A DNA stretch of 44,405 nt. It comes from Escherichia phage EC3-1. A program made the position numbers and the translations under genes. Positions within the stretch are counted from its first letter, which is position 1. Each line of letters starts with the position of its first letter. Below the pieces are notes generated by a model that was not told the DNA's origin, searched no databases, and was given only the letters and a program-made list of their open reading frames with translations. Positions 23,241 to 26,692 of this stretch are shown in pieces. The stretch lies in the sequence record PQ571288.1; one strand, given 5' to 3'.

Positions 23241-23347
23241 TCTTTAATCCTTTGGTTAAGAGGTTACTGGTTAAGGTTAATGCGCCAGACGGGAACCACC
23301 CGCTTTTCGTGTGCGACACTAGGCGCAAAATAATTCTAACACATTAC

Positions 23348-23376
23348 TTGCACACCCCAACATAATAGGATACTAT
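23348..23376 (+). promoter_or_regulatory. Sigma70-like promoter (type B): TTGCAC, 17-nt spacer, TACTAT, with AATAG-GATA-CTATT
   Basis: Exact reverse complement of the element at 181..214; drives the plus-strand island. Confidence 0.65.
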
Positions 23377-23417
23377 TCACTTACACCAACAATGTTAACT
23401 CAAACAGGAGCTACCCC

Positions 23418-23609
23418 ATGACAGGTATTACTATGTTCTTCTTAATCATTATCGTTTTAGTTTATTTTATCCCATTTCTCGTGGCGCATATGCGCAACCA
23501 TAAAGCTAAATTAGCGATATTCATGGCCAACCTGTTTCTTGGCTGGATTCTGCTGCCGTGGGTATTTATTTTAATCTGGGCTTGCAACTCGAATGTCAAA
23601 GAGAAGTGA
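23418..23609 (+). CDS. Small two-pass membrane protein, superinfection-immunity-like
   Basis: YFIPFLVAHMRNHKAKLAIFMANLFLGWILLPWVFILIWAC resembles the Imm_superinfect family pattern as recalled from memory. Confidence 0.45.
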   Translation: MTGITMFFLIIIVLVYFIPFLVAHMRNHKAKLAIFMANLFLGWILLPWVFILIWACNSNVKEK

Positions 23610-23646
23610 GCTAGTATAGGACAAATCCTAAGCACGAGGAATAAGC

Positions 23647-24777
23647 ATGGCCCGGAAGAAAATAACCGACGAACAGTTGCAGGAAGAATTGAACGCCGGT
23701 ATGAAGAATATCGACATCGCCCGTAAATACGGCATCTCAGACCGCGTTATTCGAATCCGTAAAGCGAAGCTGGCTAAGAAAGGCGTAGGCCACGGGCGCG
23801 ACGTTAGCCACCTTGTGCCAGATGGCTACAAGATTAAAGGAACGTCGTCACTTGTGGACGAGTTCGGCAACACTAAGTTGCAATGGGTTAAGACAGATAC
23901 GGACGCCGAGCGTCAGGTCGAGTTGATGAAAGCTGTGATCGAAGGCATGAAGTCAGAGATTACACCAGTTGCGCCTGTTAAAGCGACTCGAGCCAAACGC
24001 GACGATAAACTACTCAATCTTTACACGGTATCTGATTTCCATCTCGGCATGCTGGCATGGGCCGACGAGAGCGGCGACGACTGGGATATGAAAATCGCGG
24101 AAGACCTGTTCTCTCGATGGTTTTATGCTGCGTTTCAGAAAGCACCGGATGCAGGAACAGGAGTTATTAATCTGCTGGGCGACCTTGCGCACTTCGATAG
24201 TCTGGATGCCGTTACACCGGCAAGCGGTCATATTCTTGACGCGGACACGCGCTACCAGAAACTGGTACGCTACATGATTCGTATGGTCCGCCGTGTTGTT
24301 GATATGGCCCTTGTTAAGCATAAAAATGTTCGCTTGCTTATCGTGCAAGGGAACCACGACGAGAGTGGCATGATTTGGTTGGCTGAGATGTTCAGTACGC
24401 TGTATGACAATGAGCCGCGTGTGTTCGTCGATACGTCGCCGGATGTTTACAAGATGGTGCAACACGGAAAAACGACGCTGTTCTTTACACACGGGCATAA
24501 ATGCCGGTTTGAGGTGGTCGAGCCCATTATGATAGCTAAGTTCAGAAAAGCATTTGGCGAAAGCGAGTACAGTTATGCACATGTTGGGCATCTCCACCAC
24601 CAAAAGATCGTAGAAAGCAGGAATATGGTAGTGGAGCAGCATCGCACTCTCGCGGCGAAAGATGCATATGCTTCCCGCGGTGGGTGGATGTCTAAGAGGT
24701 CCGCTAATGTCATAACCTATAGTTCAGAGTTCGGGGAAGTAGGTAGGCTTTCAATCTCACCGGAGATGCTAAGATGA
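23647..24777 (+). CDS. HTH domain fused to calcineurin-like metallophosphoesterase
   Basis: Phosphoesterase motifs in order: DFHLG, GDLAHFD, GNHDE, THGH, GHLHH; N-terminal HTH-like segment NIDIARKYGISDRVIRIRKAKL. Confidence 0.7.
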   Translation: MARKKITDEQLQEELNAGMKNIDIARKYGISDRVIRIRKAKLAKKGVGHGRDVSHLVPDGYKIKGTSSLVDEFGNTKLQWVKTDTDAERQVELMKAVIEGMKSEITPVAPVKATRAKRDDKLLNLYTVSDFHLGMLAWADESGDDWDMKIAEDLFSRWFYAAFQKAPDAGTGVINLLGDLAHFDSLDAVTPASGHILDADTRYQKLVRYMIRMVRRVVDMALVKHKNVRLLIVQGNHDESGMIWLAEMFSTLYDNEPRVFVDTSPDVYKMVQHGKTTLFFTHGHKCRFEVVEPIMIAKFRKAFGESEYSYAHVGHLHHQKIVESRNMVVEQHRTLAAKDAYASRGGWMSKRSANVITYSSEFGEVGRLSISPEMLR

Positions 24778-25244
24778 AGTACCTTGATGTTTCAAAACAA
24801 TTTAAATACTGCCCTGATACTGGGCAGGTTACCAGGATATCTACTGGTGCTGAGGTTGGTACGGTTGGTGTAAGAGGCTATCTGTGCTGCGGTATGGGTG
24901 GCAAAACAGTGTATGTCCACCGCATAGCATGGTGCCTTTATAATAAATGTGACTTAGACAGGAAAACTCAAATAGACCACATAAACCATAACAGGCTAGA
25001 CAATAGAATAGAAAATCTACGCGCCACCGACAATACAGGGAACAGTAAAAATAAAACTATGAGAAAGATAAACAAATCCGGGGCTACAGGTGTAAGTTTC
25101 CACAAAGCCGCGGGTAAGTGGCGCGCGTTTATAAAAGTTAACTACAAACAAGTGCATTTAGGGCTTTACGACGATTTTGATGTAGCGGTTGCCGCGCGTA
25201 AAGCCGCCGAGAGCAAATACGGTTTCCATGAAAACCATGAGTAG
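24774..25244 (+). CDS. HNH homing endonuclease with C-terminal AP2 DNA-binding domain
   Basis: HRIAW...IDHINHNRLDNRIENLR HNH motif; ATGVSFHKAAGKWRAFIKVNYKQVHLGLYDDFDVAVAARKAAESKYG AP2-like domain. Confidence 0.8.
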   Translation: MKYLDVSKQFKYCPDTGQVTRISTGAEVGTVGVRGYLCCGMGGKTVYVHRIAWCLYNKCDLDRKTQIDHINHNRLDNRIENLRATDNTGNSKNKTMRKINKSGATGVSFHKAAGKWRAFIKVNYKQVHLGLYDDFDVAVAARKAAESKYGFHENHE

Positions 25245-25257
25245 GGGAGATTGATTT

Positions 25258-25488
25258 ATGACTTCAAAATACAACCGCACAATGACAAACACTCACGGCA
25301 GCACTATGACAGTAGACGTTTATGATGTGCTACGTGCCTTCGACATACGCGACCCGGCGCTACAGCACGCATTGAAGAAGCTGTTGTGTATGGGTTTGCG
25401 CGGCCACAAAGACACCGGAACAGACTTAGCGGAAGCAATTGAAAGTCTGGAGAAGTTACGGGAGTACAGGAGTAATATTGATGAGTAA
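25258..25488 (+). CDS. Hypothetical protein
   Basis: 76-aa ORF, last gene of the island before the bidirectional terminator. Confidence 0.5.
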   Translation: MTSKYNRTMTNTHGSTMTVDVYDVLRAFDIRDPALQHALKKLLCMGLRGHKDTGTDLAEAIESLEKLREYRSNIDE

Positions 25489-25491
25489 GAA

Positions 25492-25517
25492 AAAGGCCCC
25501 GAAAGGGGCCTTAGTTT
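25492..25517. terminator. Bidirectional rho-independent terminator (stem AAGGCCCC/GGGGCCTT, loop GAAA)
   Basis: Same stem as at 12983 and 32808 with a GNRA loop; between convergent gene ends. Confidence 0.7.
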
Positions 25518-26692
25518 TAAGCGTAGGTGATACGCTGAATGACGATAGACGACTGGTACTGGTTTCCGGTAGCCTGGCCTTCTATACTCTGAGTGATTGA
25601 CTCAGGTCCGCCAATCTCTGGTGTAACCGCCGTAAGTTCTGCACGTTTCAGGCTGAAAGACATAGCCCCGTTTACCCCCGCCAGAATAGAGTTAATCTCT
25701 ACCTGCTGCTCGTTGATAAACTTCTGAATCATCGCCATGTCATACAGCTTACCGGAGATAGAGAACGTGTTAGCTGCGCGGCTACGCTCCACAAAAGCTA
25801 CGTTAGTGTTACCGAGTTCGAACTGTGCGGACGCGCTGTTATCGTTGGTGATGGTAAGGCTGTCGCAACGCAACGGGGTAGCGCCGTCGAACACGGAAAC
25901 GTCAACCGAAGAGAACGGCTCGTCTCCAAACGTGACAGAGGAGAAATCAGAACCAGACGGCGGCCCGGTGAGAATCTCCTGGCTGCGCCCGATGAACGGG
26001 AAGCTGCCCGTTACCATCGCGTTAACGGCCTGTTCAACCGTGAAACCTGAAACTTCCACGCCTTTGGTTAGTGTGTACGCGTCAGTCCCGCCACACTGGC
26101 CTTTGAACCATGTCAGGATGGAGAACGTCTTACATGCGTTACCGGTTTCCAGTTTATCGCCGGTTTTTCCATCGGTCTCAATAGGGCCTTCGGCGGTAAG
26201 GGTGTGCTGAATGCCCGCACCAGTAACCACAGTAGCTGTTACGGCAGTAACGATGAACGGCTTAGAGTTATCACCAGTTAAAGCGTCAAAATACAGAAGG
26301 TCCCCGACCTCTACGCCGTCAGTAATGAAGCTGCCGGTGGCGCGGGTAAAGGTTTTAGCCACAGGGTCTACCGTAATGCCAACAGCGGATAAGGTTACAC
26401 CATCCTGCCATGTGGATGTCATCGCACCAGCAAGGAAATCATCCTGACTACGGGAGCTAAGCTCAATGGCATACTCGCCGCTGACCTGTTTGTTACCGGT
26501 GCGGATGGATGTAGTTTCACGGCTGCCGTCCAGTTCGTTGGAAGTCAGCGCATCTCGGGTTACGGCAGGAACACCGCCAGTGTTACGCAACGGCGACCAG
26601 ACCGGGTTAGTCGGTGTTACGCCCGGGGTCACTTCCGCCACATAGAATTGCGCGGTATTCGCGCCCTTAAAAGGAGTTGTAGCCATATTCAC
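25517..26692 (-). CDS. Major tail protein
   Basis: 391 aa, last tail gene before the chaperone/tape measure block (lambda V position). Confidence 0.6.
   Translation of the reverse strand: MNMATTPFKGANTAQFYVAEVTPGVTPTNPVWSPLRNTGGVPAVTRDALTSNELDGSRETTSIRTGNKQVSGEYAIELSSRSQDDFLAGAMTSTWQDGVTLSAVGITVDPVAKTFTRATGSFITDGVEVGDLLYFDALTGDNSKPFIVTAVTATVVTGAGIQHTLTAEGPIETDGKTGDKLETGNACKTFSILTWFKGQCGGTDAYTLTKGVEVSGFTVEQAVNAMVTGSFPFIGRSQEILTGPPSGSDFSSVTFGDEPFSSVDVSVFDGATPLRCDSLTITNDNSASAQFELGNTNVAFVERSRAANTFSISGKLYDMAMIQKFINEQQVEINSILAGVNGAMSFSLKRAELTAVTPEIGGPESITQSIEGQATGNQYQSSIVIQRITYA

Follow-up and report, generated by a model that had tools for sequence, protein, structure and literature searches.

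A four-gene block at a fixed position among the tail genes

We analysed the genome sequence of Escherichia phage EC3-1 (PQ571288.1; 44,405 nucleotides (nt), the whole of which is referred to here as the window), a complete or nearly complete genome of ~44.4 kb from a Kagunavirus-like phage of the subfamily Guernseyvirinae. Our subject is a block of four plus-strand open reading frames (ORFs) spanning 23418-25488, flanked on both sides by minus-strand tail genes. The four encode an Imm-like protein of 63 amino acids (aa) with two hydrophobic segments (23418..23609), a helix-turn-helix (HTH) metallophosphoesterase of 376 aa (MPE; 23647..24777), an HNH endonuclease of 156 aa with an AP2-like C-terminus (24774..25244) and a protein of 76 aa, p76 (25258..25488). 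To the left lies the tail assembly chaperone gene (22824..23240, minus strand; Phage_TAC_4, E value 2e-8), followed on the minus strand by a Phage_TAC_18 ORF (22459-22826), which is in another frame and directly downstream of the Phage_TAC_4 stop, and then by the tape measure gene. To the right lies the tail tube gene (25517..26692, minus strand; Phage_tube_2, E value 8e-35). The two chaperone ORFs are arranged as they would be if programmed frameshifting gave a product of the lambda G/GT kind.

An earlier note on this DNA had read the block as a moron-type accessory island inserted into the tail operon. The ORFs are present at the positions it gave, and, in agreement with its statement that the products have no assigned virion role, no recognisable virion protein is encoded in the block. 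We compared the locus with 72 IMG/VR loci retrieved through the MPE, and with GenBank loci. Taking slot 1 as the span from the chaperone start to the MPE, and slot 2 as that from the MPE stop to the tube stop, the order chaperone (minus), slot 1, MPE and slot 2 (all plus), tube (minus) was found in all 48 loci that hold both flanking genes, and in none of the 48 did the tube gene adjoin the chaperone gene. A 4.4-kb region including the cassette matched 458 phage records, mainly of Salmonella and Escherichia phages, with HSE2 as the best full-length match (90%); the MPE is present in essentially all of them (counts by identity band sum to ~458).

Base composition gives a similar picture. The GC content at third codon positions (GC3) is 0.565 for the MPE gene, 0.558 for p76 and 0.516 for the Imm gene, 0.584 for the tube gene and 0.439 for the HNH gene. 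Thus, the HNH gene alone is compositionally foreign, and the composition of MPE and p76 is native. Both of the comparisons that the earlier note had proposed therefore turned out largely differently from what an inserted island would give: the deviation in GC from the flanking genes is limited to the HNH gene, and although the outer slots do vary among relatives, the cassette with its MPE is never absent (48/48), a pattern of presence and absence being seen for the HNH gene only. The genes are largely conserved in relatives, with the MPE at the same site in every one of the 48 loci.

We consider it probable that the block is a subfamily-wide Imm-MPE-p76 cassette of the Guernseyvirinae rather than an island inserted into this phage, and that the HNH gene within it is a homing invader. 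The MPE is an ancient phage gene that holds this position throughout the Guernseyvirinae. The features that suggested a moron are real and non-random: the block runs opposite to the tail genes, has a conserved putative promoter of its own, ends at a hairpin terminator shared with the tube gene and is variable in both outer slots. Its core, however, is fixed and its composition native, and the moron interpretation needs revision on that account. A recently acquired island, whose four genes would act jointly in host interaction, superinfection exclusion or anti-defence, seems improbable to us, even if PHROGs files the Imm family under 'moron/host takeover' and a second, smaller cassette in the window (32528-32835), with the same promoter and terminator, does look moron-like. 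Apart from the fixed position in the 48 loci and in essentially all matching GenBank records, and the native composition of MPE and p76, such an acquisition fits poorly with the occurrence of the MPE in other genomic contexts (among lysis, terminase or replication genes) in Dhillonvirus and Drexlerviridae, and with PADLOC matches limited to a generic homing-endonuclease model.

Expression from a prophage is the hallmark of a moron. It is not applicable here, because Jersey-type phages and fBC-Eco01 are described as lacking integrase and excisionase genes (PMC8425127; PMC9825357), which likewise counts against an island of the moron kind. The Imm gene is found in all Jerseyviruses although they are strictly lytic (PMC8425127). 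The cassette does resemble the lambdoid morons in being a unit bounded by a promoter and a terminator among late genes, and in encoding a small envelope-directed protein whose type is linked to the tape-measure type. Unlike them, it is found in phages without lysogeny genes, has a core that is constant throughout the subfamily and, the HNH gene apart, shows native composition. Among the lambdoid morons is, reportedly, HK97 gp15, a gene for superinfection exclusion.

The HNH gene as a probable homing endonuclease

The nuclease domain of the HNH protein is intact. It scores 39.4 bits against HNH_3 (cutoff 24.8; E value 4.7e-10), belongs to phrog_99 (E value 1e-55) and has the D-H...N...N residues in DHINHNRLDNRIENL. 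Its relatives in GenBank already carry a homing endonuclease annotation. HNH-AP2 homing endonucleases have reportedly been described, and the likeness to them lies in a phage-encoded HNH catalytic domain followed by a short AP2-type region. The match to AP2 (PF00847) here is under the Pfam cutoff (19.8 bits against 33.3, E value 9.7e-4), which weighs against counting the protein among them, and the resemblance of the C-terminus to an AP2 DNA-binding module is only suggestive.

The HNH DNA was found in 38 of the ~458 records (about 8%), from 29 Salmonella and 9 Escherichia phages, that is, in two genera, at 96.7-99.3% nt identity. Compared with the Jerseyvirus Salmonella phage S101, the HNH gene of the window is identical at the aa level and 98.7% identical at the nt level; the next-best protein matches fall below 80% identity. 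An alignment of the window with S101 in 50-nt bins gave identities of 0.46-0.90 over the upstream part of the MPE gene, 0.90-1.00 from ~24490 to 25250 and 60-79% in the tube gene. In seven aligned endonuclease-free loci the insert corresponds to a clean gap of 484 nt (24778-25261), placed exactly at an ATGA overlap. In the endonuclease-free loci this overlap joins the TGA of the MPE to the ATG of p76; in the window, it is the HNH ATG that overlaps the MPE stop, and p76 obtains a new ribosome-binding site, GGGGAG, from the insert.

The region of high identity extends from the HNH gene into the 3' end of the MPE gene. One haplotype, covering the last ~290 nt (24490..24777), is common to the three carriers examined (the window, HSE2 and S101), and the endonuclease-free alleles average only 0.59-0.80 identity to the window over this tract. 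Of the last 95 codons, 66 differ between the carrier and endonuclease-free haplotypes, 53 synonymously and 13 non-synonymously. It is at exactly this 3' end that the endonuclease-free alleles of the two genera are most uniform, with a cross-genus identity of 0.84-0.89. A second, unrelated HNH gene (37-42% aa identity) occupies the same junction in three loci (L029, L030 and L058), and this lineage has its own private MPE 3' haplotype from near 24322 (98.7% identity between L029 and L030, 68% to the window). Where HNH genes are located after p76 instead (L020, L031), the MPE 3' end is normal. One locus (L005) is a recombinant that has the upstream part of the tract without the HNH gene, a pattern that would be expected from partial repair.

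The HNH gene is apparently a selfish, free-standing homing endonuclease gene that has recently been mobile, a reading that we favour because of its patchy distribution, near-identity across genera, exact insertion, low GC3 and shared, mostly synonymous MPE 3' haplotype. Intronless homing with co-conversion, and cleavage-resistant recoding of the target, would classically leave such signatures, cleavage itself being inferred. In such a process, the enzyme would act in mixed infections, cutting the MPE alleles of endonuclease-free phages close to the strongly conserved 3' end, and repair from the endonuclease-carrying genome would copy the HNH gene together with ~290 nt of recoded, cleavage-resistant MPE sequence. 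Homing repair of this kind would also be the route by which the gene crossed between the Jerseyviruses of Salmonella and the Kagunaviruses of E. coli. The host-interaction role that the earlier note had considered for the block is, for the HNH gene, less satisfactory than this selfish one.

Free-standing homing endonucleases of T-even phages (SegF, SegG and MobE) are said to act through intronless homing and to cause localized marker exclusion. The present gene is like them in standing alone between conserved genes, in being patchy among relatives and in the co-conversion of neighbouring flank markers. It differs in encoding an HNH_3 protein with an AP2-like tail, rather than a GIY-YIG Seg enzyme, in residing in small siphoviruses of two genera and in its target, which from the sequence would be the 3' end of the MPE gene.

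Two other explanations of the HNH gene can be set beside homing. Ordinary homologous recombination between co-infecting phages could have produced the mosaic 3' end of the MPE gene and the scattered occurrence of the HNH gene, the latter being passive cargo or a decayed, inactive endonuclease. These genomes are indeed strongly mosaic, with chaperone and tape-measure classes that swap independently of the tube gene, and in one locus (L061) the first 100 aa of the MPE are identical to those of the window and the remainder divergent. Ordinary exchange would nevertheless have to account for two unrelated HNH lineages, each with a private MPE 3' haplotype running from within the MPE gene up to the HNH gene, for an HNH gene far more conserved across genera than its surroundings and for an insertion exact at the start/stop overlap, and a decayed enzyme agrees poorly with an HNH_3 score above cutoff and the D-H...N...N residues in place; we regard this explanation as improbable. 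Alternatively, the HNH protein could be a working partner of the phage, either associated with the terminase and required for packaging or assisting the MPE as a cofactor. In HK97-like phages, the terminase is aided by HNH proteins, and the overlap of the HNH start with the MPE stop suggests translational coupling. The same ATGA overlap, however, couples the MPE to p76 or to other cargo in endonuclease-free phages, the HNH gene lies far from the terminase genes as judged by the NTEC3 map, and only about 8% of relatives have it, so that a working partner seems very improbable.

The metallophosphoesterase

The MPE belongs to PHROG 704 (E value 1e-164). Translated searches found it in 2037 phage records, and an exhaustive search gave 4653 representatives of clusters at 50% identity (E value <= 0.001). 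Two database searches for diverse homologues returned almost only sequences of 83-98% identity, so the diversity used here comes from the search of representatives. Over 52 sequences of 33-98% identity, the motifs DxH, GD, GNHD, HGH and GHxH are invariant or nearly so, corresponding to D130-x-H132, G178-D179, N236-H237(-D238), H282(-G-H284) and G314-H315-x-H317. The AlphaFold2 model (predicted local distance difference test (pLDDT) 88.9) has an N-terminal three-helix bundle, which is HTH-like, and an MPE core, and Foldseek matched it with probability 1.00 to many MPE structures, among them Mre11, PolD DP1 and Rv0805 at E values of ~1e-7. With its five metal-binding motifs and sandwich fold, the protein is a member of the calcineurin-like metallophosphoesterase superfamily. 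An antisense ORF of 210 aa within the gene (24010-24642, minus strand) was taken as spurious.

The gene has other surroundings in other phage groups. In Dhillonvirus it lies between lysis and terminase genes, and in one phage of the Drexlerviridae between methylase/helicase genes and the holin gene. Its neighbours in Kagunaviruses include an HAD_PNKP phosphatase and a P-loop kinase. Two further loci were observed, one (L063, 6116-7404) in which the MPE is followed by an HAD_PNKP phosphatase and a protein with a dATP/dGTP diphosphohydrolase domain, and one (L071, 6072-7167) in which it is followed by DUF7768, DUF6378 and an unassigned ORF of 153 aa. The recurrence of nucleotide-metabolism genes beside the MPE in distant phages may point to the pathway in which it acts, and PHROG neighbours of the family are annotated as exonucleases.

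On this basis, we would give about an even chance to the MPE being a DNA or nucleotide phosphodiesterase or nuclease that acts in DNA metabolism or host takeover; part of the remaining probability goes to functions other than those discussed here. Several results tell against such an assignment. The top fold matches, Mre11 and the PolD DP1 exonuclease, are nearly equalled by Rv0805, YfcE and LpxH, so that by fold a nuclease cannot be told from a phosphodiesterase of cyclic nucleotides or lipids, and a profile search against PDB sequences found no MPE relative and no Mre11/SbcD, returning a marginal HTH match to FixJ only. Nor does the protein fall within the Mre11/SbcD family, the fold match being generic (template modelling (TM) score ~0.41-0.46) and the loci examined having no adjacent Rad50/SbcC partner gene. 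The MPE could instead break down immune signalling nucleotides as a phosphodiesterase, or act on proteins as a phosphatase like lambda NinI; the E values of Rv0805 and YfcE, close to that of Mre11, lend these possibilities some weight, as does its best Pfam match, Metallophos_2 of the YfcE-like group, just under cutoff (24.4 against 27). We think these alternatives unlikely, given that the HTH-like bundle suggests nucleic-acid binding, that the PHROG neighbours are annotated as exonucleases, that the gene is linked to nucleotide-salvage genes and that there was no match to an anti-defence family.

A plausible model for the MPE is gp48 of mycobacteriophage A10ZJ24, a phage MPE that is expressed early, degrades host DNA and counters host defences (PMC12287305). 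The two share all five motifs, a likeness known at the level of the superfamily, and the MPE of the window, at ~376 aa, differs in having an additional N-terminal HTH and beta-hairpin region.

The MPE of locus L061 (5001-6128, IMG/VR 3300045988_019953), in which the first ~100 aa are identical to those of the window and the rest is distant (61% overall), is followed by yet another HNH gene (33% identity). It looks like a much longer endonuclease-linked replacement, in this case of the catalytic domain.

Exchangeable genes on either side of the metallophosphoesterase

The Imm-like protein matches Imm_superinfect (PF14373) with 51 bits (cutoff 27.9; E value 1.3e-13) and phrog_1039. It occurs in 352 phage records, and its sequence shows two hydrophobic stretches. 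The family assignment is solid, and the protein is a candidate for superinfection exclusion; in the literature on Jerseyviruses the mechanism of Imm is called unknown (PMC8425127). Like T4 Imm, it is small, has two hydrophobic segments and a significant match to the family, and is encoded by a lytic phage. It differs in size (63 aa against ~83 aa in T4), and unrelated secreted proteins take its place in some relatives. The alternatives found in slot 1 are two Imm types of 59-68 aa, a signal-peptide protein of 108-120 aa and a transmembrane protein of ~100 aa.

The type of protein in slot 1 co-varies with the class, by sequence, to which the neighbouring chaperone and tape-measure genes belong. 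The chaperone gene falls into three such classes, at ~99%, 54% and 48% aa identity. Over the chaperone and tape-measure region as a whole (window 20130-23240 against L005-L069) the classes lie at 99%, ~54% and ~48% aa identity, with the tube gene steady at ~90%. Because these classes differ sharply and the tube gene is steady, the proximal and distal tail modules meet at a recombination boundary marked by the cassette, and the slot-1 type goes with the distal module. A consideration that weakens any functional reading of this linkage is that it may reflect physical adjacency only.

Slot 2 ranges from 173 to 1523 nt. In its minimal form it holds p76 alone, with the MPE TGA overlapping the p76 ATG. 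Elsewhere it contains a 66-aa ORF and p76, an HAD-type PNKP phosphatase with a P-loop kinase, p76 with Rha/KilAC, HNH genes of at least two unrelated lineages or, in three loci, short unassigned ORFs only. In our sample p76 (27 loci) and the phosphatase-kinase pair (18 loci) never occur together.

Present in 767 phage records, p76 has homologues that are all short and unannotated. It had no match in Pfam, NCBIfam or PADLOC. Its AlphaFold2 model, predicted with confidence (pLDDT 88.8), is a beta-hairpin with three helices, for which Foldseek returned only noise against the PDB (best E value 0.59) and, in BFVD, weak fold similarity (E values 8e-3 to 2e-2, TM scores 0.67-0.72) to DUF3310, SaV-like and 'nucleotide kinase'-labelled proteins. 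No Pfam hidden Markov model, that of the DUF3310/SaV-like family included, matched any of 21 members of the p76 family at E values up to 10. The shared fold, together with the mutual exclusion of p76 and the phosphatase-kinase pair in slot 2, provides a weak lead towards an accessory role in nucleotide metabolism; the similarity is at the level of fold only, and the 'nucleotide kinase'-labelled proteins, at 159-508 aa, are much longer than p76.

Putative promoters, leader and terminator

Upstream of the Imm gene lies a putative promoter (23348..23376, plus strand; TTGCAC-17-TACTAT), called type B in the earlier note. Its 29-mer is repeated identically at 185-213 on the minus strand, with close copies at 43040 (minus) and 32528 (plus), giving four copies in the window where 0.37 would be expected. 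The -10 element is overlapped by a palindrome, AATAG-N4-CTATT (23364..23377), and promoter and palindrome are conserved in position in 47 of 51 loci; the Jerseyviruses have TTGCAT-17-TATTAT at this site. The note's claim of a dedicated promoter is thus borne out as far as sequence can take it. On the other side of the ledger, the promoter was missed by a promoter scan and has only 7 of the 12 bases of the sigma-70 consensus, and the one Kagunavirus transcriptome to be had bears on its timing unfavourably: the RNA-seq study of K1B4, a long time course (up to 120 min) of limited quality, labels Imm 'late' rather than early (PMC12645636). In the same data Imm peaks with the replication genes and not with the neighbouring tail genes (PMC12645636), which supports independent control of the cassette and does not establish early timing. 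A minus-strand promoter that the scan did call (23398..23370) was rejected as probably an artefact of the palindrome, in a stretch that is deleted in many relatives.

The palindrome occurs eight times in the window (positions 184, 4024, 6760, 10322, 23364, 32544, 43039 and 43197; 0.04 expected), each time at a promoter-like site, of which there are two architectures. Four of the sites stand before plus-strand replication genes, two before leftward small genes, one here and one at the 32528 cassette. In fBC-Eco01 the same motif was described as the repeated consensus of a 'phage promoter' and attributed to a phage RNA polymerase (PMC9825357). Since the annotated NTEC3 genome lists no RNA polymerase gene, we read the palindrome as a candidate shared operator on host-type promoters, which suggests that one phage-encoded DNA-binding regulator may control the replication genes, the leftward small genes and both plus-strand cassettes.

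At its other end, the cassette is followed by a hairpin, AAGGCCCC-N4-GGGGCCTT (25493-25512), that would serve as terminator for both the cassette and the convergent tube gene. Three near-identical copies occur in the window (12983-13002, 25493-25512 and 32808-32827; none expected), each with an A-run before it and a T-rich stretch after it, at a point where plus- and minus-strand units converge, and the hairpin follows the tube stop codon in 46 of 48 loci. All three are probably copies of a reused bidirectional terminator module. The bidirectional terminator proposed earlier therefore holds up well, as a repeated and conserved element, with the proviso that the scan called it on the minus strand and that the T-tract on the plus strand is weaker (AGTTTTA).

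Just left of the cassette promoter and pointing away from it, we found an extended -10 element (TGnTAnnnT; 23334..23342, minus strand) that is present in all 45 unique relatives, always exactly 6 nt before a conserved structured element of 45 nt (23282..23326, minus strand). By its conservation it is a likely promoter of the chaperone gene. The RNAalifold consensus of the 45-nt element has an outer stem of 5 base pairs enclosing two hairpins; 98.6% of cells are paired, 4 of the 13 pairs show compensatory changes, and the G-U pairs are valid on the minus strand only. Its covariation score of 0.308 was reached by none of 500 shuffles (0.125), and controls slid along the alignment gave at most 0.086. 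Two points detract from a structured leader: single-sequence minimum free energy (MFE) z-scores for the conserved intergenic block were not significant (-0.27 and -0.78), and the leader sequences are related, so that covariation counts can be inflated. Because the MFE z-scores are not significant, the support for the structure comes from covariation only. Scanning the whole window for Rfam families and tRNAs gave no match, and the leader is absent from Rfam. It may stabilise or regulate the chaperone/tape-measure mRNA as its 5' leader.

Given a conserved promoter and leader for the chaperone gene, the tail genes are therefore most simply viewed as forming two transcription units that are separated by the cassette. 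The earlier description of a tail operon interrupted by the block does not fit a chaperone gene with what is probably a conserved promoter of its own.

Two further observations concern the window at large. A second plus-strand mini-cassette (32528-32835) lies within the minus-strand late region, between the spanin genes and a gene for a 153-aa protein. Its promoter (32528-32563) is of type B and includes the palindrome, its terminator is again the GGCCCC hairpin (32808-32827), and its one gene (32591-32803; GC content 0.39, GC3 0.32) encodes a protein of 70 aa with an N-terminal hydrophobic segment and no family match; the mini-cassette looks by composition more moron-like than the main cassette. 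The ends of the window are an exact direct repeat of 141 nt (1-141 = 44265-44405), most likely an overlap left by assembly, the genome being circularly permuted or terminally redundant.

Proposed organisation and significance of the cassette

The arrangement that we propose has the MPE as its fixed anchor. Slot 1, upstream, would hold exchangeable small envelope proteins, here a candidate for superinfection exclusion of the Imm type, and slot 2, downstream, exchangeable cargo, in this phage invaded by the HNH gene. The cassette would be read from its own sigma-70-type promoter, bearing the same palindrome as the promoters of the replication genes and leftward small genes, and its transcription would end at the hairpin that also ends the tube transcript. 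Of the two tail units, one would run from the head-proximal genes through the tube gene and the other from the chaperone gene through the distal tail, with the extended -10 promoter, back-to-back with that of the cassette, and the structured leader restarting transcription for the chaperone and tape measure.

One could go further and view the cassette as a conserved hub of control and conflict, in which slot-1 exclusion matched to the tape measure, counter-defence by the HTH-MPE and an undescribed promoter/leader switch operate jointly. That all of these hold together is a rather unlikely proposition. If it were true, each phage would exclude its own kind through slot-1 factors matched to the linked type of tape measure, and the HTH-MPE, with p76 or with the phosphatase/kinase pair, would degrade host DNA or signal nucleotides, an activity that would be common to thousands of siphovirus lineages. 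The back-to-back promoters, the palindromic operator and the 45-nt leader would, in turn, determine how much tube protein is made relative to chaperone and tape-measure protein.

Taken separately, the parts of the locus have a significance of their own. The MPE represents a very large uncharacterised family of HTH-metallophosphoesterases in a tractable group of 44-kb phages, and both p76, as a widespread protein of 76 aa, and the conserved promoter/leader arrangement upstream of the tail chaperone gene are testable unknowns. The HNH gene would be a clean natural example of endonuclease-driven gene conversion across a boundary of genus and host, from Salmonella to E. coli phages, and such conversion bears on the origin of mosaicism in phages used for therapy and synthetic biology. 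More generally, the locus advises caution: a block on the opposite strand of a tail operon need not be a recent moron, and in these phages it appears to be old and fixed, with two exchangeable slots.

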